The notes under the pieces are model-generated. The model worked only from the letters and a program-made list of their open reading frames with translations. It did no database searches and was not told the DNA's origin. A stretch of 64,000 nucleotides of DNA from Gordonia sp. (in: high G+C Gram-positive bacteria). GTDB taxonomy: Bacteria; Actinomycetota; Actinomycetes; Mycobacteriales; Mycobacteriaceae. The stretch is from NCBI RefSeq assembly GCF_047600565.1, contig NZ_JASGKN010000001.1, forward strand, positions 221,628 to 285,627, read 5' to 3'. This document shows, one piece after another, positions 3,393-59,040 of the stretch. Position 1 is the stretch's first letter; every line of letters starts with the position of its first letter. Both the position numbers and the translations under genes were made by a program.

Positions 3393-5255
3393 ATGTGCGG
3401 AATCGTCGGATACGTGGGGCAGCGCGATGCTCTCGACATCGTCATCGAAGCCCTCAGGCGGATGGAATACCGCGGTTATGACTCTGCGGGTGTCGCCATC
3501 GCCGACGGTCACGGACACATCGCCATCGAGAAGAAGGCCGGTCCGCTGGTCAATCTCGAAAAGCAGATCGCTGAGGTCGGCGCCGACACCCTGAGCGGCA
3601 CCACCGGCATGGGGCACACCCGATGGGCCACCCACGGCCAGCCGACCGACCGCAACGCCCACCCGCACCGCAGCCTGGACGGCAAGGCCGCCGTCGTGCA
3701 CAACGGCATCATCGAGAACTATGCCTCGCTGCGTGCTGAGCTGGAGTCCGACGGCATCGAGTTCGGCTCCGACACCGACACCGAGGCCGCCGTGCACCTC
3801 CTGGAGCGCGAATACACCTCGGGCGCGAACGCCGGTGACTTCGTGGCCAGCGCCTACACGGTGCTGCGCCGGCTCGAAGGCGCGTTCACCGTCGTCTTCA
3901 TGCACGCCGACCATCCGGACACCATCGTCGCCGCCCGCCGTTCCACCCCGCTCGTCGTCGGCGTCGGCAAGAACGAGATGTTCGTGGCCTCCGACGTCAC
4001 CGCATTCATCGAACACACCCGCGACGCCGTCGAGCTCGGGCAGGACGAAGTCGTCGTCATCACCGCCGACAGCTTCGACATCACCGACTTCGACGGCAAC
4101 CCGACCGGCGGCAAGCCGTTCCACATCGACTGGGACCTGGCCGCCGCCGAGAAGGGCGGCTACGACTACTTCATGCTCAAGGAGATCGCCGAGCAGCCCG
4201 AGGCGCTCACCAACACCCTCCTGGGGCATCTCGAAGACGGTCGCATCGTGCTCGACGAGCAGCGACTCTCCGACGAGGACCTCCGCGACGTCGACAAGGT
4301 CTTCGTGGTCGCCTGCGGCACCGCCTACCACGCCGGCCTGATCGCCAAGTATGCGATCGAGCACTGGACCCGCCTGCCCGTCGAGGTCGAGCTGGCCAGC
4401 GAGTTCCGCTACCGCGACCCGGTGCTGGACCGGTCGACGCTGGTCGTGGCCATCAGCCAGTCCGGCGAGACCGCCGACACCCTGGAGGCCGTCCGCCACG
4501 CCAAGGAGCAGAACGCCCGCGTCCTGGCCATCTGCAACACCAACGGTGCACAGATTCCCCGCGAGTCCGACGCTGTGCTGTACACACACGCCGGCCCGGA
4601 GATCGGTGTCGCCTCCACCAAATGCTTCCTGGCGCAGATCGCCGCCGCCTACATGGTGGGACTGGCGCTGGCGCAGGCCGTCGGCACCAAGTACCAGGAC
4701 GAGGTGGTCTCGGAGTTCCACAACCTCGAACAGATGCCGGCCGCTGTCGCCGAAGTCCTCGAGCAGATGGAACCGGTGCGCGACCTGGCCCGGGAGTACG
4801 CGAAGAGCGACACCGTCCTGTTCCTGGGCCGCCACGTCGGCTACCCGGTCGCCCTCGAAGGTGCGCTCAAACTCAAAGAGCTGGCGTACATCCACGCCGA
4901 GGGGTTCGCCGCAGGCGAGCTCAAGCACGGACCGATCGCCCTCATCGACGAGGGCCTGCCGGTGATCGTCATCATGCCGTCGCCGAACGGCCGCGCCCTG
5001 CTGCACTCGAAGATGATCAGCAACATCCGCGAGATCCAGGCCCGTGGTGCCCGCACCATCGTGATCGCCGAGCCGGACGACGACGCCGCCAAGGCGGTCG
5101 CCGACCACTTCATCCCGATCCCGGCCACCCCCACCCTGCTGCAGCCGCTGGTGTCCACCGTGCCGCTGCAGGTGTTCGCCGCGACCGTCGCCCAGGAACG
5201 CGGCTACGACGTCGACAAGCCGCGCAATCTCGCCAAGTCCGTCACCGTCGAGTAG
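3393..5255 (+). CDS. glmS: Glutamine--fructose-6-phosphate aminotransferase
   Basis: Begins MCGIVGYVGQRD (N-terminal Cys glutaminase), carries two SIS domains and ends KPRNLAKSVTVE. The start is the in-frame ATG 3393 of the 878-aa track ORF, whose upstream part is an Arg-rich artefact. Confidence 0.97.
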   Translation: MCGIVGYVGQRDALDIVIEALRRMEYRGYDSAGVAIADGHGHIAIEKKAGPLVNLEKQIAEVGADTLSGTTGMGHTRWATHGQPTDRNAHPHRSLDGKAAVVHNGIIENYASLRAELESDGIEFGSDTDTEAAVHLLEREYTSGANAGDFVASAYTVLRRLEGAFTVVFMHADHPDTIVAARRSTPLVVGVGKNEMFVASDVTAFIEHTRDAVELGQDEVVVITADSFDITDFDGNPTGGKPFHIDWDLAAAEKGGYDYFMLKEIAEQPEALTNTLLGHLEDGRIVLDEQRLSDEDLRDVDKVFVVACGTAYHAGLIAKYAIEHWTRLPVEVELASEFRYRDPVLDRSTLVVAISQSGETADTLEAVRHAKEQNARVLAICNTNGAQIPRESDAVLYTHAGPEIGVASTKCFLAQIAAAYMVGLALAQAVGTKYQDEVVSEFHNLEQMPAAVAEVLEQMEPVRDLAREYAKSDTVLFLGRHVGYPVALEGALKLKELAYIHAEGFAAGELKHGPIALIDEGLPVIVIMPSPNGRALLHSKMISNIREIQARGARTIVIAEPDDDAAKAVADHFIPIPATPTLLQPLVSTVPLQVFAATVAQERGYDVDKPRNLAKSVTVE

Positions 5256-5265
5256 GCGGACCGTC

Positions 5266-6702
5266 GTGACCGGCTACTTCTCGGTCGAGAAGATCCGCGC
5301 GGCCGAGGAGGCCACCGGCGACCTCCTGACCAGCGGTGCGCTCATGGCGCGAGCCGCGAACGGTGTCGCCCGGGTCGCCCTCGGCGAACTCCGGGCACGC
5401 GGAGCCGGGATCTACGGCCGCACCGTCGGTCTGGTGATCGGAGCCGGCAACAACGGCGGCGACGCGCTCTACGCGGGCGCGATCCTGGCCGGCCGCGGCG
5501 TCGCCTGCCATGCGGTGCTGCTCGCCCCGGACAAGACCCACGCCGACGCTCTGGCCGCCTACCGCAGGGCCGGCGGCCGAGTGATCGACGCGTTCACCGC
5601 ACCCCTCGACGTGGTTCTCGACGCCGTCGTCGGCCTCGGCGGCCGCGGGCCGCTGCGACCGGAGGCGGCGCAGGCCTTCGCATCCCGGTGCGCGGCCGAA
5701 GCCACAGTCATCGCCGTCGACCTGCCCTCCGGAATCGACCCCGACACCGGTGTCGTCAGCGACCCATCGGTGCGTGCCGACGTCTCGGTCACCTTCGGCG
5801 AACCGCGCCTCGCACACCTGCTGGCGGCACCGCAGTGCGGCCGCGTCGAGGTCGTCGACCTCGGACTCGACCTGCACGACCCGGACATCACCGTCCCCGA
5901 CGACCGCGAGAACGCCGCCCTGTGGCCGGTGCCCGGCCCCCGCGACGACAAGTACACGCAGGGTGTGGTCGGGATCGTCGCCGGCTCCGCCACCTACCCG
6001 GGTGCCGCACTGCTGGCCACACAGGCCGCCGTGGCGGCCACCTCCGGCATGACCCGCTACGTCGGCCCGGCCGCCCACGACGTGGTGAACCATCGCCCGG
6101 AAGTGGTGGCGGTCGAACGGTTCGACGACGCCGGCCGCGTGCAGGCCTGGGTCGTGGGCCCGGGCCTCGGTGCGGACTCGCGCGCCCACGACCTGGTCGA
6201 GACGGTCCTGCGCAGTGACGTTCCGGTGCTCGTCGACGCCGACGGCCTCACCATCCTCGCGTCACGGCCCGGCCTGCTGCGCGGCCGCACCGCGCCGACC
6301 CTGCTCACCCCGCACGCCGGCGAATTCGCACGACTGGCCGCGGCACCCGTCGGCGACGACCGTCTGTCCGCCGTCCGCGACCTCGCCGCGACCCTGGGCG
6401 CGACAGTCCTCCTCAAAGGCCGCATCACACTGGTCGCCGACCCCGACGGCCGCGTGGCAGGCAACGACGCGGGCGCGTCCTGGGCGGCCACCGCCGGCGC
6501 CGGAGACGTGCTGTCCGGGATCGCCGGATCACTGCTGGCGGCCGGTCTCACACCCCTGACGGCGGGCACCCTCGCGGCCCGCGCCCACGCCGTCGCCGCC
6601 CGGATCGCCAGCGGCCCGGCACCCGGACACCCCATCGGAGCCTCCGATCTGGCCGCCGCGCTGCCGGACGCGATCACGCTCCTGCGACAATCGAGACGAT
6701 GA
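5266..6702 (+). CDS. nnr: Bifunctional NAD(P)H-hydrate repair enzyme (epimerase/dehydratase)
   Basis: YjeF-N motif GAGNNGGDALYAG and C-terminal kinase-fold motif GAGDVLSG. Confidence 0.9.
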   Translation: MTGYFSVEKIRAAEEATGDLLTSGALMARAANGVARVALGELRARGAGIYGRTVGLVIGAGNNGGDALYAGAILAGRGVACHAVLLAPDKTHADALAAYRRAGGRVIDAFTAPLDVVLDAVVGLGGRGPLRPEAAQAFASRCAAEATVIAVDLPSGIDPDTGVVSDPSVRADVSVTFGEPRLAHLLAAPQCGRVEVVDLGLDLHDPDITVPDDRENAALWPVPGPRDDKYTQGVVGIVAGSATYPGAALLATQAAVAATSGMTRYVGPAAHDVVNHRPEVVAVERFDDAGRVQAWVVGPGLGADSRAHDLVETVLRSDVPVLVDADGLTILASRPGLLRGRTAPTLLTPHAGEFARLAAAPVGDDRLSAVRDLAATLGATVLLKGRITLVADPDGRVAGNDAGASWAATAGAGDVLSGIAGSLLAAGLTPLTAGTLAARAHAVAARIASGPAPGHPIGASDLAAALPDAITLLRQSRR

Positions 6703-50664: not shown

Positions 50665-50687
50665 GTCAACGAAAAGGGGGTGTGGGC

Positions 50688-52331
50688 ATGAGTCGACGCA
50701 AGCACTCACGAAGCCCGAAACGCTGGCGCGATGCCGACCTCACACCCCTGGGTTTAGGGCCTGTACCGGACGGGCTGTCCGATCATGACGCTGACGTGGC
50801 GGCGATCAATCAGCTCGTGGCGGCGTGTGCGGGTGAGTCGTATCTGGTGTGGCGGCGCCTGAACGCGGTTGCCGACCTCCTCGAACGACGAGCCCCTGTT
50901 GATCCGGCAACCGCGGAGGATTCGGTCGAGTTCACCCGTTTATGTGACCCGCGTACGAAGCTGGCCACCAGTATTGCCACCACCTTGGCGGTCAGCACGT
51001 ATCTGGCCGAGAAACTGGTGACCGAGGGCGAAGCGCTGCGCCATCGCCTCCCACACACCGGCGTGTTGTTGCGAGACGGGGTCTTGAGTCCCCGGGCGTT
51101 CTCTGCGGTGGTGTTCGAGACCACCGCCGTGATCGACACGGCCTTGATGGTGCAGATCGATCATCGGATCGCCGACGACATCACTGCCTCCGGTGTGCGC
51201 ACCGTGACTGCCGTGGCTGATCTCGCCCGCCGGATCGTCGCGGACGTTGATGCCGAAGCAGCCCGCGCCGAACGCGAAGCGGCCAAGAAGTCGGCCGGAG
51301 TGGTGAGCTACCCGATCCGCGGAGGGATGGCGGTTCTGGAAATCACCGATACCGCAGAACGTGTTGCGGTCATGGACGCCGCGATCACCGCCGCATCCCA
51401 GAAGACCGACGAGACTGACACCCGCAGTAGTGGGCGCCGCCGCGCCGATGCCGCCTTCGACTTGTTGACCGGGGACGGCACTGGACCCGGTTCCCGGATC
51501 GTCGTGAACGTCATCACCGACGGATCCACGCTTGAGGGCGGGGACACACCCGGGCACCTCGACGGGCACGGAACCATCTCCGCCGACCACGTCCGCGACA
51601 TCGCGTCGACGCCCGGCACCGTCGTGCGGCCCCTCGACCTGACGCGGCTCGCTGATCACACTGCTCAGGCGGCAGATCCGTACCGGCCGACCGCCCTGCT
51701 GGACACGGTGGTGCGCGGTTTGTTCGGAACCTGCACCTGGCCGGGTTGTTCACGCCCCGCCTCACGGTGCCAGCTCGATCACGTCACCGAATACAACCAC
51801 CAGAACCCTGATGCGGGTGGTGCGACGTGTTGGTGCAACCTCAACCCCAAATGCGTCTTCCACCACCAGATCAAAACCTTCGCCGACGGATTCCTCGACG
51901 ACCAGGTCATCGACGCCCACGGCCAGATCTGGACCGAAATCACCACCCCAGAAGGATTCACCACCCGAACCCGGGCAGCCAACACCTGGCTGTTGCCTGG
52001 TTTGGGGTTGATTCCCTGTAGGCATGGACCACCCCAGGATCTCCTTTCGACAGGCTCAAGGAGCGTTCAGCCCCGCTCCTTGAGCGTGCGGTGCCCTGAG
52101 CATGCGTGGCGGAGCTTGCTCCGACACGCGGTCGAAGGGTCGAAAGGAGTCGAACCCACCCGCGCCCGTACTCGCACGGAGGCCAAACACGCCTACCGGA
52201 TGCAGCTGCGCGCTCAGAACCGGCGAGCTCGCTTCGACAGGCTCAACGAGCGGACGAACCAGCTCAACGAGCGAACCGATGAGCCGGCGACTCGCACGGC
52301 ATTCGCCGACGACGGACCACCACCGTTCTGA
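50688..52331 (+). CDS. DUF222 + HNH endonuclease-domain protein (REP13E12-like), full-length copy
   Basis: Paralog of 2-1525, with about 20 substitutions over about 400 aligned residues by my manual count. Same HNH cluster. ATG 50688 is preferred over GTG 50682 because of spacing from the GGGGG Shine-Dalgarno sequence. Confidence 0.85.
   Translation: MSRRKHSRSPKRWRDADLTPLGLGPVPDGLSDHDADVAAINQLVAACAGESYLVWRRLNAVADLLERRAPVDPATAEDSVEFTRLCDPRTKLATSIATTLAVSTYLAEKLVTEGEALRHRLPHTGVLLRDGVLSPRAFSAVVFETTAVIDTALMVQIDHRIADDITASGVRTVTAVADLARRIVADVDAEAARAEREAAKKSAGVVSYPIRGGMAVLEITDTAERVAVMDAAITAASQKTDETDTRSSGRRRADAAFDLLTGDGTGPGSRIVVNVITDGSTLEGGDTPGHLDGHGTISADHVRDIASTPGTVVRPLDLTRLADHTAQAADPYRPTALLDTVVRGLFGTCTWPGCSRPASRCQLDHVTEYNHQNPDAGGATCWCNLNPKCVFHHQIKTFADGFLDDQVIDAHGQIWTEITTPEGFTTRTRAANTWLLPGLGLIPCRHGPPQDLLSTGSRSVQPRSLSVRCPEHAWRSLLRHAVEGSKGVEPTRARTRTEAKHAYRMQLRAQNRRARFDRLNERTNQLNERTDEPATRTAFADDGPPPF
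52041..52149. repeat. Palindromic mini-element, variant copy at the same codon position of the second HNH gene
   Basis: The left arm ctcctttcgacaggctcaaggagcg (52041-52065) is identical to the copy-1 arm. The right arm is split into cgctccttgagc (52074-52085) and tcgaaaggag (52140-52149) by unrelated sequence. Confidence 0.8.
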
Positions 52332-52332
52332 G

Positions 52333-52361
52333 ATGGGTTGGCACTGAATCATGGGTTGGCA
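52333..52361 (+). repeat. Duplicated dnaE2 start: ATGGGTTGGCA twice, 18 nt apart
   Basis: The first copy (52333-52343) opens a mini-ORF ATG GGT TGG CAC TGA (MGWH-stop). The second copy (52351-52361) is the real dnaE2 start, MGWHNGP. Confidence 0.9.
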
Positions 52362-55300
52362 TAACGGGCCGCTGAACTGGTCGGAGATGGAGCGGGTGCT
52401 CTCCGGCCGGCCGCCCACGCCCAGGGAACTCGCCAGGCCCTATCTGCCGGGTGGTGACGGCGGGGATTCGCCGGCCTGGTCGCGCAAGCGGGGAGCCTTC
52501 CAGCCGGAGGATGTGCAGCCGGTGGCATCGTCCATCGACTACGCCGAACTCCATGCGCACAGCGCCTACAGCTTTCTCGACGGCGCCTCACTGCCCGAGG
52601 AGATGGTGACCGAAGCGCGCCGCCTGGGCCTGACGGCGCTCGCACTCACCGACCACGACGGCTTCTACGGGGTGGTGCGGTTTGCTGAAGCGGCCCGCGA
52701 ATACGGCCTGCCTACCGTCTTCGGTGCCGAACTCTCCCTCCAGCGAGACTCGGCCAGAGCCGGTTCCGTGGACCCTCCCGGCGAACATCTGCTGGTCCTC
52801 GCCAAAGACGCCGAAGGCTACCGGCGACTGTCCCGGGTGATCGCCGACGCGCACATGAGCGGCGGCGCCAAAGGGCTGCTGCGCTACGACCACGATCTGC
52901 TCACCTCGTCGGCGGCCGGGCACTGGCTGATCCTCACCGGCTGCCGCAAAGGGGTGGTGCGCCGGGCGCTGGCCCGCGGCGGCATCACCGCGGCGCGGGC
53001 CGCACTCGGCGATCTGGTGCAGCGGTTCGGCCGGGAGACGGTGATCGTCGAACTGACCGCCGACGGCGGATCCGGCGACGACGAACGCAATGCGATCCTG
53101 GCCGGTCTGGCCGCCGAGTTCTCGCTGCCGGCGGTCGCGACCACCGGCGCCCACTTCTCCGGACCGCATCGCCGTCGCCTGGCCCAGGCCGTCGCCGCGA
53201 TACGGGCCCGCACCGACATCGACACCATCGCCGGCTGGCTGCCCGGCATCGGGGGCTCCCATCTGCGCAGCGGCGACGAGATGGTGCGTCTGCTGCCGGC
53301 GCACCGCGACGCCGTCGAGAACGCCGCCGGCATCGCCGCCGACTGCGCGTTCTCCCTGGAACTGATCGCCCCGAACCTTCCGCCGTTCGACGTCCCCGAC
53401 GGGCACACCGAGGCGAGCTGGCTGCGGCACCTGACCGAGGAGGGGGCACGCCGGCGCTACGGCACCCGCGAAGAGCGACCGGATGCCTACCGGCAGATCG
53501 AGCACGAGCTGAACGTCATCGAGACGCTCACCTTCCCCGGCTACTTCCTGGTGGTCCACGACATCGTCAGGTTCTGCAAGAAGAACGACATCCTGTGTCA
53601 GGGCCGGGGGAGCGCGGCGAACTCGGCGGTCTGTTACGCCCTCGGCGTCACCAACGTCGACCCGATCGCCAACCACCTGCTCTTCGAACGGTTCCTCGCC
53701 CCGGAACGGGACGGACCGCCGGACATCGACGTCGACATCGAATCCGACCGCCGGGAGGAGGCGATCCAATACGTCTACAGCCGGCACGGCCGTGAGTTCA
53801 GTGCGCAGGTCGCCAACGTCATCACCTACCGGGGACGGTCGGCGATCCGCGACTCCGCGCGGGCCCTCGGCTACGACCCCGGTCAGCAGGACGCGTGGAG
53901 CAAAGTGCCCGATTCGGCGCCCGACGACGTCCGTGCCATGGCCGCCGAGATCGCCTCCCTGCCCCGCCATCTGGGTATCCACTCCGGGGGCATGGTGATC
54001 TGCGACCGGCCGATCGCCGACGTCTGCCCGACCGAATGGGCGCGGATGGAGGGCCGCAGCGTCCTGCAATGGGACAAGGACGACTGTGCGTCCGTGGGCC
54101 TGGTCAAGTTCGATCTGCTGGGCCTCGGCATGCTCTCGGCGCTGCACTACGCGATCGACCTGGTGGCGCAGCACAAGGGCCTCGACGTCGACCTGGCGAC
54201 CCTGGACCTGTCCGAACAGGCCGTCTACGACATGCTGTGCCGCGCCGACTCGGTGGGCGTGTTCCAGGTGGAGTCGCGGGCACAGATGGCGACGCTGCCG
54301 AGGCTCAAACCGCAGAAATTCTACGACCTGGTGGTGGAGGTGGCGCTGATCCGTCCCGGACCGATCCAGGGAGGATCGGTGCACCCGTACATCCGCCGCC
54401 GCAACGGGCACGAGGATTCGGACGTCGAGCATTCGTCGATGGAGAATGCGCTCGGCCGCACTCTGGGCATTCCGCTGTTCCAGGAACAGCTCATGCAGCT
54501 GGCCGTCGACGTCGCCGGATTCGACACCGCGGAGGCCGACCAGTTGCGGCGGGCCATGGGATCCAAACGATCGCCGGAGAAGATGGAGCGTCTCCGGGCC
54601 CGCTTCTACGAAGGGATGGCCGCCACCCACGGCATCACCGGCGACATGGCCGATCGGGTCTACGAGAAGATGGCGGCCTTCGCCAACTTCGGTTTCCCGG
54701 AAAGCCATTCACAGAGCTTCGCGTCACTGGTGTTCTATTCGGCCTGGTTCAAGCTGCATCATCCGGCGGCGTTCTGCGCGGCACTGCTGCGGGCGCAGCC
54801 GATGGGCTTCTACTCCCCGCAGTCCCTGGTGGCCGACGCGCGCCGGCACGGGGTGGTGGTGCACCACCCGGACATCAACTCCTCGCTGGTGCACGCGAAC
54901 CTGGAGAACGCGGGACTCGAGGTGCGAATCGGTCTGGGCGCGATCAAAGGCCTGGGCGAGGCCGGTGCGCAGCGAATCGTCGACGATCGGGAACGGCGCG
55001 GACCGTACGCCGGCGTCACCGACCTGTCGCGGCGAGCCGAGCTGACCGGCACCCAACTGGAGGCACTCGCCACCGCGGGCGCGTTCGGATCACTCGGGCT
55101 CGATCGGCGGTCGGCGTTGTGGGAGGCGGGGGCGGCAGCCGGCCTGCGCGAAGACCAGTTGGAGGCAGTGTCCCCGCGCGGGGCGCCGGCACTGCCCGGG
55201 ATGAGCGAGGTGGAACTGGCGGCGGTCGACGCCATGTCGACGGGCATCACCCCGCACACCTACCCGACGCAGTACCTGCGTCCCCGCCTGGACGCGATGG

Positions 55301-55614
55301 GGGTGACCCCCGCCGACCGGCTGCTGTCGGTGCCCGACGGGACCCGCGTGACGGTCGGGGGAGCGGTCACCCATCGTCAACGCCCGGCCACCGCGTCCGG
55401 CGTCACCTTCGTGAACCTCGAAGACGAGACCGGGATGGTGAACGTCGTCTGCTCGGTGGGACTGTGGTCGCGGTACCGAAAACTCGCCCAGACCGCGTCG
55501 GCACTGCTGATCCGCGGAAAAGTGCAGAACGCGGAAGGCGCGGTGACCGTCGTCGCCGACCGTCTGCAGCGACTCGACCTCCGCGTCGGCACACGATCGC
55601 GGGACTGGTGCTGA
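52351..55614 (+). CDS. dnaE2: Error-prone DNA polymerase DnaE2 (ImuC)
   Basis: PHP domain YAELHAHSAYSFLDGAS. 1087 aa. Pol III alpha core motifs GRGSAANSAVCYALGVT and IDVDIESDRRE. Confidence 0.95.
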   Translation: MGWHNGPLNWSEMERVLSGRPPTPRELARPYLPGGDGGDSPAWSRKRGAFQPEDVQPVASSIDYAELHAHSAYSFLDGASLPEEMVTEARRLGLTALALTDHDGFYGVVRFAEAAREYGLPTVFGAELSLQRDSARAGSVDPPGEHLLVLAKDAEGYRRLSRVIADAHMSGGAKGLLRYDHDLLTSSAAGHWLILTGCRKGVVRRALARGGITAARAALGDLVQRFGRETVIVELTADGGSGDDERNAILAGLAAEFSLPAVATTGAHFSGPHRRRLAQAVAAIRARTDIDTIAGWLPGIGGSHLRSGDEMVRLLPAHRDAVENAAGIAADCAFSLELIAPNLPPFDVPDGHTEASWLRHLTEEGARRRYGTREERPDAYRQIEHELNVIETLTFPGYFLVVHDIVRFCKKNDILCQGRGSAANSAVCYALGVTNVDPIANHLLFERFLAPERDGPPDIDVDIESDRREEAIQYVYSRHGREFSAQVANVITYRGRSAIRDSARALGYDPGQQDAWSKVPDSAPDDVRAMAAEIASLPRHLGIHSGGMVICDRPIADVCPTEWARMEGRSVLQWDKDDCASVGLVKFDLLGLGMLSALHYAIDLVAQHKGLDVDLATLDLSEQAVYDMLCRADSVGVFQVESRAQMATLPRLKPQKFYDLVVEVALIRPGPIQGGSVHPYIRRRNGHEDSDVEHSSMENALGRTLGIPLFQEQLMQLAVDVAGFDTAEADQLRRAMGSKRSPEKMERLRARFYEGMAATHGITGDMADRVYEKMAAFANFGFPESHSQSFASLVFYSAWFKLHHPAAFCAALLRAQPMGFYSPQSLVADARRHGVVVHHPDINSSLVHANLENAGLEVRIGLGAIKGLGEAGAQRIVDDRERRGPYAGVTDLSRRAELTGTQLEALATAGAFGSLGLDRRSALWEAGAAAGLREDQLEAVSPRGAPALPGMSEVELAAVDAMSTGITPHTYPTQYLRPRLDAMGVTPADRLLSVPDGTRVTVGGAVTHRQRPATASGVTFVNLEDETGMVNVVCSVGLWSRYRKLAQTASALLIRGKVQNAEGAVTVVADRLQRLDLRVGTRSRDWC

Positions 55615-55627
55615 CAGACTGGCGGTC

Positions 55628-55855
55628 ATGACCGAGACGGTGACGGTGCTGGTGAAGCCCAACAGCAAGAAGGGCCCACTGGTCGATCACGGCGACGACG
55701 GTGTGCTCACCGTCTACGTGCGCGAACCGGCGACCGAAGGCAAAGCCAACAAGGCCGTCGGTCTCCTGCTCGCCAAGCACTTCGGCGTACCCAAGTCGAC
55801 GGTCGAACTGGTCGGCGGAGCCACCAGCCGGCACAAGCGGTTCCGGATCGGCTGA
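55628..55855 (+). CDS. DUF167 (YggU-like) small protein
   Basis: VKPNSKKG...VREPATEGKANKAV...VELVGGATSRHKRFRI matches the UPF0235/DUF167 pattern. Confidence 0.8.
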   Translation: MTETVTVLVKPNSKKGPLVDHGDDGVLTVYVREPATEGKANKAVGLLLAKHFGVPKSTVELVGGATSRHKRFRIG

Positions 55856-55898
55856 GGTCGGCTGCGGCACCGGCGCCGGTCCGGCAGAATCGGCCGGA

Positions 55899-56046
55899 GG
55901 CGGACGGTGCGAGAGGGATCGAGGATCCGTCTCAGGGGCTACCCCTGGGTACATGAACGGTTCGGCATCGCGTCGCGCGCAGCCGGGCACACTTCGTGTG
56001 CTGCACTGCGCGCCGAAGACGACAAGTCGTGGTCGCACCGTCCGCC
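55899..56046 (+). ncRNA. Candidate retron msr-msd non-coding RNA bounded by a1/a2 inverted repeats
   Basis: a1 GGCGGACGGTGCGA (55899-55912) and a2 TCGCACCGTCCGCC (56033-56046) are perfect reverse complements. Inside are three hairpins: 55916-55928, 55933-55947, and a long interrupted one at 55975-56013. The RT reading frame starts 19 nt downstream. Confidence 0.55.
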
Positions 56047-56064
56047 ACCGACCGAAAGGGACAC

Positions 56065-56278
56065 GTGACCGGAGCCGGACTGTCGCCGCCGGCGCGTTTC
56101 AGCCCGGCCACCATCGCACGAATGGTCCGGACGGTCGCCGAGGTGCCGTGGGAGCGGACCGAAGTGAACGGTGCGCTCGTCACCGTCATCGATCCGGTCG
56201 ACGCCGAGGAGGTCACCACCGTCCTCCTCGCGGCCTTCTCCTCACATCCCGATCTCCTCACATCCCGATCCGGAGGAC
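56065..56278 (+). other. Coding-looking 5' segment that would fuse in frame to the RT if one 16-bp repeat copy were removed
   Basis: GTG 56065 follows GAAAGGGA. Strong GC3 bias through ...EEVTTVLLAAFSSHPD. In the present sequence this frame then runs out of phase across the RT gene to 56685. Confidence 0.45.
56238..56269 (+). repeat. Perfect 16-bp tandem duplication
   Basis: ctcctcacatcccgat occurs twice (56238-56253 and 56254-56269). Because 16 is not a multiple of 3, it shifts the frame by one. Confidence 0.95.
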
Positions 56279-57340
56279 ATGACCGGACTGGTGGCCGCCC
56301 TGCCGGCGCCCACCCGAGTGTGGTCACCCCAACCGCCGACCGGCCGTCCCCGGTTCGGTGTTCCCACGATCGACGACGTGGCCGCCCTGGCGGCGTGGCT
56401 GAACCTGAGTCTCGAAGAACTGGACTGGTTCGCGGCGCGCGGCCGCTGGTCGGTGCGGGCGGCGCCCCGGCTTCGGCACTACCGGGTGGCGCGGATCGCC
56501 AAACGCGGTGGCGGGGTACGGATCATCGAGGCGCCGAAGGAACGACTCGCCACGATTCAGCGCACGATCCTCGACCACATCCTGATCGCGGTGCCACCCC
56601 ACCCGGCGGCACACGGATTCGTCCGCGGGCATTCGGTGATCGACTTCGCGCAGCCGCACACCGGACGTCGTGTCCTCGTCCGTGAAGACCTCCGGCACTG
56701 CTTCGAGCATGTGACCTATCCGCGGGTGAAAGCGGTGTTCGGTGCGATCGGCTATCCGCCGCCGGTGGCGACCTATCTGGCCGGTCTGTGCACCACGGTG
56801 GTGGCGGTCGCCGACAGGACGGGCCTCACCCCGCTGCACGCCGCGCTCCTGCGGGAACGGCACCTGCCACAGGGTGCGCCTCCATCACCGGCGCTGCTGA
56901 ACCTGGTCCTGCGCCGCCTGGACTTCCGGATCGCCGGATACGCGGCCGCACACCACCTGACCTACACCCGGTACGCCGACGACCTGGCCTTCTCCGGTGA
57001 CGAGGTCGATGTGGGCGCACTGCGCTGGTTCATCGGCCGGGTGGTGGCGAGCGAGGGCTTCGTGGTCCACCCCGACAAGACCCAGGTGATGTACGACCAT
57101 CAGCGGCAACGACTGGGAGGCCTCGTCGTCAACGAGGGGGTGCGGGCGAGTCGCCACGACTTCGACGCCCTCAAAGCGCTGCTGCACAACGCCGCCCGGA
57201 CCGGTGGTGAAGCGCAGAACCGTGCCGGACTGCCCGATTTCCGCGCCCACGTGTACGGCCGCATCGAATGGGTGTCGACCGGGTCGCCGGAACGTCGGGC
57301 ACGGCTCCTCGCGATGGCCGGCCGCGTCGACTGGGGCTGA
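56279..57340 (+). CDS. Retron-type reverse transcriptase
   Basis: RT motifs [18 protein letters not shown] (1-2), VREDLRHCF (A), [20 protein letters not shown] (4), [11 protein letters not shown] (YADD at 56972-56983), and KTQVM...RLGGLVVNE (6-7). Block-by-block resemblance to retron Ec86 RT as I remember it. The minimal start is ATG 56279; the true start may be 56065. Confidence 0.85.
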
Positions 57341-57341
57341 C

Positions 57342-57806
57342 TCAGACCGCGCCGTCGAAGCCGTTCTGCCGCCACGCCTCGTAGAGGGCGACGCTGGTGG
57401 CGTTCGCCAGATTCATGGAGCGACGGTCCGGCAGCATCGGGATACGCAACTGGTCGGTGATGTGCGTGTCGGACAGAACCTCGTCGGGCAGCCCGGTGGG
57501 TTCGGGACCGAACAACAGCACGTCGCCGGGCCGGTAGTCGACATCGGTGTAGAAGCGGGTGGCGTGTGCGGTGAACGCGAACACCCGTTCCGGTGCCAGA
57601 ACCGTCCACGCGGTCTCCAGATCCGGGTGCACCGTCACGTTCGCCATCTCGTGGTAGTCGAGGCCGGCCCGTTTCACCTGGGTGTCGGTCATGGTGAACC
57701 CGAGCGGCTCGATCAAATGCAGCTCGCAGCCGGTATTGGCGGCGATGCGGATCGCATTACCGGTATTCGGCGGGATGCACGGCTGGTAGTAGACGATCCG
57801 GAACAC
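57342..57806 (-). CDS. trmL: tRNA (cytidine/uridine-2'-O)-methyltransferase TrmL (SpoU family)
   Basis: [26 protein letters not shown] and [11 protein letters not shown]...RIPM...[19 protein letters not shown] start at 57806. The rest of the 458-aa track ORF is antisense to folD. Confidence 0.9.
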
Positions 57807-57839
57807 GGCCTCGACCTTACGGCGTGGAAGAATGGCAGC

Positions 57840-58715
57840 GTGACGGCGACACGACTGGACGGCAAGACCACCCGCGACGAGATCTTCGACGACCTCAAGG
57901 TCCGGGTGGACCGGCTCCGCGAGAACGGGATCACCCCCGGACTGGGCACGATCCTGGTGGGCGACGATCCCGGCTCGCACTCCTACGTCAAAGGCAAGCA
58001 CGGCGACTGCGCCAAGATCGGTGTCGCATCCATCCGCAAGGATCTGCCGGCCGACATCACCACCGATGAGCTGAACGCGGCGATCGACGAACTCAACGCC
58101 GACCCCGCCTGCACCGGCTACATCGTGCAGCTGCCGCTGCCCAAGCATCTCGACGAGAACGCCGCCCTCGAGCGGATCGCGCCGGAGAAGGACGCCGACG
58201 GCCTGCACCCGATCAACCTGGGCCGGCTGGTCCTCGGCAAGGACTCCACGCTGCCCTGCACGCCGCGCGGTGTGATCCACCTGCTGCGCCGTTACGACAT
58301 TCCGATCGACGGTGCCCACGTGGTGGTCGTGGGCCGCGGCGTCACCATCGGCCGCCCGATCGGTCTGCTGCTGACACGACGCAGCGAGAACGCGACGGTC
58401 ACCCTCTGCCACACCGGCACCCGCGACCTGGCCGCCGAGGTCAAGCGCGCCGACATCGTGATCGCCGCCGCCGGCGTCGCGCACCTGATCACGCCCGACA
58501 TGGTGAAGCCGGGTGCCACCGTCATCGATGTGGGCGTCAGCCGCACCGAAGACGGGCTGGCCGGCGACGTCGATCCGGGAGTCTGGGAGGTGGCCGGCGC
58601 GGTCTCGCCGAACCCGGGCGGCGTGGGTCCGCTGACCCGCGCCTTCCTGCTGGTGAACGTCGTCGAGCGGGCCGAGGCCGAGCTCGCCGCCCAGCAGGAA
58701 ACAGTCGGGCTCTGA
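57840..58715 (+). CDS. folD: Bifunctional methylenetetrahydrofolate dehydrogenase/cyclohydrolase
   Basis: [29 protein letters not shown], and [17 protein letters not shown] 57840 lies inside track ORF 57204-58715. Confidence 0.95.
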
Positions 58716-58716
58716 C

Positions 58717-59040
58717 ATGGCCGGCTACGACGTCGAACGCATCACGCGGGCACGGAGACGGTTCCGGATCATCCGGCAGATCCCGTACTTCGTGGTGCTC
58801 GCGGTCGTCGCCGTGGCCGCGATCCTGGTTCTGATGGATCGCTGGCGCCGCGGCACGTTCGTGTTCGGATCAGCCCTCATCCTGGGCGCGATCTTCCGCG
58901 CGGTGATGCCGGCCGAACGGGTCGGACTGCTCGCCGTCCGCAGCCGGGCGTTCGACGTCACCACGATGGCCGGACTCGGCATGCTCGTGATCTGGTTGTC
59001 GACCTCGATCGACTCGCTGGGCACCGGCGACCACCTGTAG
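58717..59040 (+). CDS. DUF3017-like small membrane protein
   Basis: 107 aa with three TM segments, directly after folD as in mycobacteria. Confidence 0.65.
   Translation: MAGYDVERITRARRRFRIIRQIPYFVVLAVVAVAAILVLMDRWRRGTFVFGSALILGAIFRAVMPAERVGLLAVRSRAFDVTTMAGLGMLVIWLSTSIDSLGTGDHL

Follow-up and report, generated by a model that had tools for sequence, protein, structure and literature searches.

The window, a 64,000-nt stretch of Gordonia sp. DNA (contig NZ_JASGKN010000001.1, positions 221,628 to 285,627 of the forward strand), carries at 55856-57340 a compact module made of a structured noncoding RNA (ncRNA) and a gene for a retron-type reverse transcriptase (RT). The RNA has the parts of a retron transcript, namely two arms (a1 and a2) that pair with each other, an msr segment and an msd segment, the latter being the predicted template of multicopy single-stranded DNA (msDNA). 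The RT gene is split between two reading frames by a short tandem duplication. The module is probably a retron of the effector-less, mostly actinobacterial clade 11 kind that has recently acquired a disabling mutation. Its parts, in window coordinates, are as follows.

55885-55890, + strand: -10-like hexamer CAGAAT, preceded by GG
55890-55912, + strand: a1 arm, helix 1 of the RNA consensus, with compensatory changes in 13 of 16 pairs
55913, + strand: predicted branching (priming) guanosine, directly 3' of a1 and opposing an invariant G at 56032
55916-55928, + strand: msr hairpin 1, GGATC-GAG-GATCC, helix 2, with 4 of 4 pairs covarying and 98.6% of alignment cells paired
55931-55949, + strand: msr hairpin 2, CUCAGGGG-CUA-CCCCUGGG, helix 3, with 100% of cells paired, the most conserved element of the RNA
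55950-55970, + strand: A/T-richer msr-msd linker, read from the sequence as the likely stop zone of reverse transcription
55971-56021, + strand: long interrupted msd hairpin (arms 55975-55992 and 55996-56013), the predicted msDNA template
56033-56055, + strand: a2 arm, with a perfect core at 56033-56046
56065-56252, + strand: ancestral 5' part of the RT gene, with a GTG start, encoding most of an N-terminal four-helix domain
56237-56268, + strand: perfect 16-bp tandem duplication, TCTCCTCACATCCCGA twice (copies 56237-56252 and 56253-56268), shifting the frame by +1
56269-57340, + strand: RT core, read in the second frame, in which every catalytic motif and the thumb are present and there are no other lesions

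Relatives of the RT turned up in at least 592 genomes when one genome was scanned per species, and 80 loci were retrieved for comparison. The actinobacterial hosts comprise Gordonia, Williamsia, Nocardia, Rhodococcus, Dietzia, Tsukamurella, Nakamurella, Amycolatopsis and other Pseudonocardiales; the remaining hosts are Acidobacteriota, Planctomycetota, one myxobacterial metagenome-assembled genome (MAG) and one gammaproteobacterial MAG.

The RNA is framed by an inverted repeat. The perfect 14-nt core that the first-pass annotation had marked (55899-55912 and 56033-56046, with 120 nt between) extends to 23-nt arms that are 91% complementary, and the two short hairpins and the long interrupted hairpin that had been folded by eye are all present inside it. 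The segment 55885-56060 folds at -99 kcal/mol, as compared to -73 +/- 4 in 200 dinucleotide shuffles (z = -5.8). Applied to an alignment of 37 actinobacterial copies, RNAalifold returns the a1/a2 stem, msr hairpins 1 and 2 and the msd stem, with 94.8% of cells paired and compensatory changes in 28 of 37 pairs; when the partners are slid, these values fall to 38-46% and to 9-15 pairs, and none of 500 shuffles reaches the observed pairing or covariation. Helix 1 was picked by the inverted-repeat search and its figures are hence biased, but helices 2-5, which were not so picked, covary too, including 8 of the 9 pairs in msd helices 4 and 5. Hairpin 2 reads CUCAGGGG-YAA-CCCCUGGG in the alignment, is nearly invariant and is recognisable across phyla. 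Folding the region and looking for covariation upstream of homologues had been named at the outset as ways to probe the RNA, and both bear it out.

The position of the RNA is conserved too. The inverted repeat lies at the same place in nearly all loci, spanning 142-181 nt with a sequence that varies from locus to locus, and the end of a2 falls 330-400 nt upstream of the ELxWFA motif of the RT. In 71 of 82 sources, a covariance model finds exactly one match per locus, on the + strand and directly upstream of the RT; about 25 of the 71 lie outside the set from which the model was built. The window has a single match in 64 kb (55891-56054, 119.9 bits, E = 7e-19). A scan of 55500-57500 against Rfam at E <= 1 matched no family.

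Two guanosines, G23 and G142 of the alignment (window 55913 and 56032), are invariant in the 37 sequences, and the same G/G arrangement can be seen by eye in the acidobacterial and planctomycete copies. In sequence and position the pair fits the 'two opposing G' arrangement of retron RNAs, and 55913 would be the branch point. The a1 edge reads GCGAGAGG, which may resemble the branch site of Ec86, as the first-pass annotation had suggested. Upstream, a [TC]ANNNT hexamer starts 5-12 nt before the covariance-model match in 67 of 71 loci, where the background is 1.07% per position, and is usually preceded by a tGG extension (G at -2 in 56 of the 67). Given this conserved position, the transcript likely starts at the first bases of a1.

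The msd apical stem-loop (window 55987-56001, GCACACUUCGUGUGC; columns 113-127 of alignment A2, GCACGCUnCGCGUGC) is almost invariant in sequence among the 37 actinobacterial copies. The msd stems of retrons are usually described as variable, and the constancy of this loop hints at sequence-specific recognition.

By profile, sequence and predicted fold, the RT belongs with the retron and retron-like lineage, and not with the RTs of group II introns, DGRs, Abi/UG systems or CRISPR loci. The PADLOC models that fit it best are RT_other (E = 1.6e-157) and RT_outgroup, labelled 'retron' (E = 1.4e-148, ranging from 1e-148 to 1e-152 over the unrepaired and repaired proteins described below), both far better than any typed retron model; RT_XIII comes next at 2e-95, followed by RT_III-A at ~1e-60 and RT_Ec107-like at only 4e-53. 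Pfam RVT_1 matches the RT core (E = 2e-17). In a profile search of the PDB, the Ec86 RT comes first (3.6e-48), then Ec67, Kva2, Ec83, Ec78/St85 and Eco8, while group II intron RTs appear at ~1e-13, some 35 orders of magnitude weaker, and DRT2 at 2.4e-06; the NCBIfam Drt2 model gives only 1.3e-06. For the closest homologue (P0002, 74% identity), an AlphaFold model with a mean predicted local distance difference test (pLDDT) score of 88.3 was searched with Foldseek, and retron RTs make up all of the 18 best matches. Among the profile sets against which the first-pass annotation had proposed to score the protein, retron models thus stand on top.

The RT motif blocks that had been read from the translation are present (LPQGAPPSP...), and the LPQGAPxSPxLxNL block is shared with the Ec86 RT. 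Region X, the NAxxH motif between RT2 and RT3, reads FAQPH in the window and FAxPH in the family, with the H invariant in 38 homologues and the N replaced. Region Y, the VTG motif of RT7, reads LGG in the window and LAG(LVVN) in the family, with the G nearly invariant and the V and T lost. The H of NAxxH and the G of VTG are the most conserved residues of the two motifs (Mestre et al., 2020; NAR 48:12632, PMC7736814). FAQPH and LGG had been flagged as unusual: they do deviate from NAxxH and VTG, but they are the normal versions of this family and retain the H and the G.

The sole extra part of the RT is its N-terminal four-helix domain. In the AlphaFold model of P0002, residues 10-75 form this domain with confidence and are followed by a disordered linker; modelled alone, the domain (~70 aa) reaches a pLDDT of 88 and a predicted template-modelling score (pTM) of 0.75. 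A fold search of the PDB with the domain gave no significant match (best E = 1.6), and a Pfam search with it gave no match. The extra N-terminal segment of ~70 aa suspected in the first-pass annotation is therefore a true feature of the family, but in the window genome it is severed from the RT.

The cut is made by the 16-bp duplication, which separates the N-terminal domain from the RT core and breaks the frame after residue 63. A good Shine-Dalgarno-like sequence, GAAAGGGA (56054-61), precedes GTG 56065, and the frame that this GTG opens runs to 56685 without any RT motif. The RT motifs sit in the frame of another, mechanically called open reading frame (ORF), 56171-57340, in which the gene-caller product (P0001, 353 aa) starts at ATG 56279. 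It had been claimed that the ORF starting 19 nt after the inverted repeat carries every RT motif; this does not hold, since the frame of GTG 56065 is another one and stops at 56685.

Removal of one copy of TCTCCTCACATCCCGA in silico yields a 419-aa protein that joins both frames. The repaired protein spans positions 6-407 of the 407 in PADLOC RT_outgroup, as compared to only 53-407 for the unrepaired ORF, and the homologues, at 415-440 aa, cover 93-100% of it. The repaired junction, SSHPD/PED, lines up with SSHPDPGD of P0002, and when the DNA is aligned, the second copy of the duplication faces a gap of exactly 16 nt in L082, the locus of P0002. On these sequence comparisons, the 419-aa protein is the ancestral product. 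As the window reads, the full 419-aa RT cannot be made from it; at best, internal initiation at ATG 56279 could give a 353-aa, N-terminally truncated RT. The window copy is thus probably disabled, and since the RNA is intact and the RT core bears no other lesion, the inactivation would be recent.

The immediate relatives carry damage of their own. In the window's sub-clade, three genomes carry three different lesions, the RT frameshift in the window and ncRNA defects in L082 and L002, whose RT genes look intact. The L082 copy (5832-5985) has lost hairpin 2 and part of a1 and scores 60 bits, an assembly error being possible in this MAG; the L002 copy (5661-5847) has a degenerate msr and scores 34 bits. 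Because the lesions differ in the three genomes, they suggest that selection on the module is relaxed, or that the module is decaying, in this Gordonia sub-lineage. Elsewhere in the family, the middle of the RT from one Gordonia humi assembly (P0060) is out of register with the protein of the other G. humi assembly (P0008; columns ~255-345 of alignment A1), which reflects either another frameshifted allele or an assembly difference.

No gene accompanies the module through the family. Crude gene calls with gene-order clustering over all loci found no neighbour common to different lineages. A Pfam survey of the two genes upstream and the two downstream of each locus distributed 127 upstream neighbours over 109 families and 135 downstream neighbours over 114, none of them common across lineages. 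The commonest families are lineage-specific (SpoU at 7 loci, pentapeptide at 4, RecA at 3), and PADLOC defence models match only a handful of neighbours. Tripartite retrons of types I-XIII have a conserved effector gene, or a fused effector domain, beside the RT; the loci of this family have neither. An apparent second RT gene at one locus (L003) was a single-linkage clustering artefact, the ORF encoding a helix-turn-helix plus citrate-synthase-like protein. The statement that the module has no recognisable effector, first made from the window alone, stands in ~80 loci and ~260 neighbours. The module stands alone, outside defence islands and among housekeeping genes.

With an RT of the retron class and a covarying, position-fixed RNA that contains the invariant Gs, the a1-msr-msd-a2-RT layout of a retron proposed in the first-pass annotation is supported. 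Retrons in general have a contiguous RNA closed at its ends by an a1/a2 duplex around 1-3 msr hairpins and a single long msd hairpin, and the RNA of this family shows this plan. Retron RTs have been divided into 11 clades, of which clade 11 and one branch of clade 2 contain stand-alone (msr-msd)-RT cassettes; clade 11 is largely restricted to Actinobacteria, and consensus ncRNA structures have been detected in it (Mestre et al., 2020). A 2026 survey recognises msr/msd families A and B in clade 11, rates the clade as low in novelty and places clade 11-A in Pseudomonadota, Actinomycetota and Acidobacteriota (bioRxiv 10.64898/2026.05.14.725207). An effector-less retron in an actinobacterium, which had been taken as unusual, was therefore already described. 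The window module would be a member of this kind. Like the stand-alone cassettes of clade 11, it combines a retron-type RT with an upstream a1/a2-bounded RNA and no effector gene, its relatives live mainly in Actinobacteria with Acidobacteriota and other phyla besides, signs of vertical inheritance are present, and the best PADLOC models of its RT are the untyped RT_other and RT_outgroup. It differs in that the window copy is frameshifted, and the accessible text of the clade 11 papers mentions neither the synteny with dnaE2 on one side nor the four-helix domain.

Among individual retrons, Retron-Eco1 (Ec86, type II-A3) offers the closest solved RT (sequence E = 3.6e-48, Foldseek 8e-21) and the same RNA plan of a1/a2 stem, msr hairpins and msd hairpin. 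By contrast, Ec86 has a nucleoside deoxyribosyltransferase-like effector where the window family has no partner, it has NAxxH and VTG where the window has FAQPH and LGG, and its RT lacks the ~95-aa extra N-terminal part and a ~19-residue insertion that lies just before LPQGAP in the window protein (window 56800-56860, repaired residues ~240-260). The orphan retrons similar to Retron-Eco5 (Ec107), in clade 2, are likewise effector-less (msr-msd)-RT cassettes, but they belong to another RT clade and to other hosts; whether their partners are encoded elsewhere or they have another function was left open (Mestre et al., 2020). Type XIII retrons (Mx162, Mx65, Sa163, Ne144) have the next-best typed PADLOC model for the window RT and are the other group of retrons reported to follow the phylogeny of their hosts, yet their SWIM/winged-helix and HEAT/ARM partners have no counterpart near the window family.

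In the intact family, an extended -10 promoter (CAGAAT in the window) would start the transcript at about the first base of a1, as its positional conservation implies. The a1 arm pairs with a2, a fold shown by covariation, enclosing the two msr hairpins and the one long msd hairpin. The RT, translated from the same transcript from the GTG that corresponds to 56065, would bind msr, probably at the near-invariant hairpin 2, prime on the 2'-OH of the invariant G (55913) and copy msd leftwards from ~56032 to the A/T-richer linker at ~55960, the likely stop zone. The predicted product is a branched msDNA of roughly 65-75 nt, which, as in other retrons, would be linked 2'-5' to the msr. In the retrons surveyed by Khan et al. 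(PMC10849725), G is the usual branch nucleotide as well as the usual first base to be copied, and reverse transcription typically ends ahead of an AT-rich stretch; the window fits all three points. The same study tested retrons from every RT clade for RT-DNA in E. coli and reports 'intermediate' production for those outside clades 2, 9, 10, 3 and 4, a group that on this account would include clade 11. As to its role, the family may serve either in defence, with a partner encoded elsewhere, or in a domesticated cellular function.

Several points weigh against reading the locus as a clade 11 retron with a recent disabling mutation. The clade assignment is drawn from the names of the PADLOC models, the host range and the stand-alone architecture. 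The family consensus lacks the N that is canonical in NAxxH as well as the VT of VTG, and the branch G is preceded by GCGA instead of the common TTA. The msDNA, the transcript start and the RT activity are predictions, for this locus and its close relatives alike. The duplication is known from one assembly, P0001 having a single member on a single contig, and a metagenome scan for the duplicated junction or the single-copy form returned 0 matches, which leaves the frameshift without independent confirmation; an assembly artefact therefore has to be weighed. Finally, Amycolatopsis has homologues of ~341-355 aa that lack the N-terminal domain and begin within a few nt of the end of their ncRNA; a truncated window RT could therefore still work if it were translated.

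This last point leads to the first alternative, that the module is still functional, a ~353-aa RT made from ATG 56279 (or GTG 56291) acting on the intact ncRNA. The RT core is otherwise free of lesions and retains every family-invariant residue, the ncRNA scores as high as that of intact relatives in its own clade, the short Amycolatopsis RTs show the N-terminal domain to be dispensable in some lineages, and a GGAGGA lies just upstream of ATG 56279. That GGAGGA, however, leaves only 1 nt before the ATG, less than a normal Shine-Dalgarno sequence requires, and 224 nt separate a2 from the internal start downstream, which falls within an ORF that is translated in another frame and reaches 56685. 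The N-terminal domain is moreover kept and confidently folded in all Mycobacteriales homologues examined, which argues that it matters there. Continued function at the window locus is unlikely.

If instead the duplication were an assembly or sequencing artefact, the real genome would encode the intact 419-aa RT and a functional module. The single assembly, the want of an independent sequence of either form and a gene that is perfectly intact apart from the duplication speak for this. Typical sequencing errors, however, are homopolymer indels or substitutions, and a perfect 16-bp tandem duplication is atypical of them; the different lesions in the two nearest relatives, hairpin 2 lost in one and the msr degenerate in the other, also point to relaxed selection that is real. 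We consider an artefact rather improbable.

The remaining alternatives concern what the family does, and the first of them starts from where it resides. A rough neighbour-joining tree of RT cores contains Pseudonocardiales, Nocardia with Skermania, Rhodococcus, Tsukamurella, Dietzia, two Gordonia groups and Williamsia; the tree tracks taxonomy and points to mostly vertical descent. In the window's Gordonia clade and in Williamsia, dnaE2 lies directly upstream, with a gap between its stop and the RNA of down to 27-88 nt, and it also lies directly upstream in Actinocrispum, Kibdelosporangium (gap 41 nt) and Amycolatopsis, and thus in two actinobacterial orders. Pentapeptide and DUF3017 genes recur in the same dnaE2 block, and the simplest reading of the adjacency is an ancestral syntenic position. 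A literature search for dnaE2 together with retron found no paper in the library searched.

Other repair genes appear at a few loci. In Tsukamurella (L019 2873-5620, L020 3018-5765, L034 1198-3891), the ncRNA and RT directly follow polA. In Gordonia otitidis, G. sputi and G. aichiensis (L012, L024 and L029, ~4270-5370, minus strand), they are divergent from recA/recX, and the intergenic region shared with recA/recX holds a LexA box (GAAC-N4-GTTC). The recurrence of dnaE2, polA and recA is suggestive, in few independent contexts.

On these grounds the module might be an ancient, domesticated and vertically inherited resident of Mycobacteriales and Pseudonocardiales, placed beside dnaE2, the gene of the SOS mutasome polymerase, and elsewhere beside polA or recA, whose msDNA would serve a DNA-damage or mutagenesis function rather than toxin-based phage defence; the differing lesions in the window's Gordonia sub-lineage would then record the loss of that function. 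Vertical inheritance and domestication have been suggested for some retrons (Mestre et al., 2020), and the housekeeping rather than defence character of the neighbours agrees with this. Promoters offer a further hint. TGTC(G/A)NNN-N8-[CT]ANNNT, a TGTCR-N8-hexamer element located 16-20 nt upstream of the -10 hexamer, resembles in sequence the mycobacterial RecA-NDp (PafBC-type) damage-inducible promoter. It occurs at L014, L022, L033, L038 and L075, that is, only in the Gordonia terrae group and one Pseudonocardiaceae MAG (L075), and is missing from the window and most loci. Upstream of the RNA, neither a general LexA box nor a RecA-NDp motif is present family-wide or in the window, full LexA boxes being confined to the three loci that share an intergenic region with recA. 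The adjacency to dnaE2 may be no more than the ancestral synteny noted above, most lineages (Nocardia, Rhodococcus, Dietzia and all non-actinobacteria) have unrelated neighbours, and with so few independent contexts the enrichment is statistically weak. A damage-response role is accordingly about as improbable as an artefact.

Less probable still, the RNA could be another kind of RT cofactor or leader, either the template for a different, DRT2-like complementary DNA or a cis-regulatory 5' untranslated region, as might be argued from the predicted status of the family's msDNA, from an RT-plus-ncRNA composition that it shares with DRT2, which also has no protein effector, and from a 120-nt spacing of the arms in the window that is a multiple of 3, but the RT is far closer to retron RTs than to DRT2 in both the PDB and the NCBIfam comparisons and the canonical retron features, from the a1/a2 stem to the opposing Gs, are all there. 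A DRT2-like template for rolling-circle synthesis of a concatemeric ORF was rejected, as the inner length changes between loci (120, 122, 123 nt ...) without being held to multiples of 3 and the RT lies far nearer to retrons.

A recently disabled clade 11 retron is not a new type of system but a further member of a catalogued effector-less clade. To our knowledge, all retrons that are understood mechanistically guard a toxin. Whole clades without a partner gene, such as clade 11 and the Ec107-like group, make effector-less retrons an open problem. For this clade, the comparison contributes an RNA model that is supported by covariance and predicts the branch G and the promoter, an N-terminal four-helix domain not remarked on before, and a picture of mostly vertical inheritance in housekeeping surroundings, with the dnaE2 position kept across two actinobacterial orders. 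The function of stand-alone retrons thereby becomes testable in tractable Rhodococcus, Gordonia and Nocardia. The window locus itself, with its broken RT gene, makes a poor experimental subject; it serves better as an illustration of recent decay.

The genes that flank the module in the window are the following.

52351-55614, + strand: dnaE2-type paralogue of the DNA polymerase III alpha subunit, identified by its Pfam domains; a kept upstream neighbour, with no membership of the module implied
55628-55855: DUF167 gene, immediate upstream neighbour of the module
57342-57818, - strand: SpoU/TrmL-like methyltransferase gene, convergent with the RT gene; a lineage-specific neighbour, outside the module
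57840-58715: folD, beyond the trmL-like gene
58717-59040: DUF3017 gene, beyond folD

The DUF167, dnaE2 and convergent trmL neighbours lie where the first-pass annotation had put them, as does the single nucleotide between the stop codons of the RT gene (57338-57340) and the trmL-like gene (57342-57344). The product of 57342-57818 scores under the curated cut-offs of the TrmL models, and a trmL-like gene lies downstream of the RT only in the Gordonia/Williamsia clade. For the ORF directly upstream of dnaE2 (50682-52331, + strand), an identity as imuB was ruled out; it encodes a DUF222 protein (Pfam E = 7.6e-20). One further locus, on a contig labelled Kitasatospora arboriphila (L011, NZ_JNYV01000003.1), carries dnaE2, ncRNA, RT and trmL in an order and with a sequence nearly identical to those of Williamsia muralis (L016, L017), and this assembly is probably mislabelled or contaminated.

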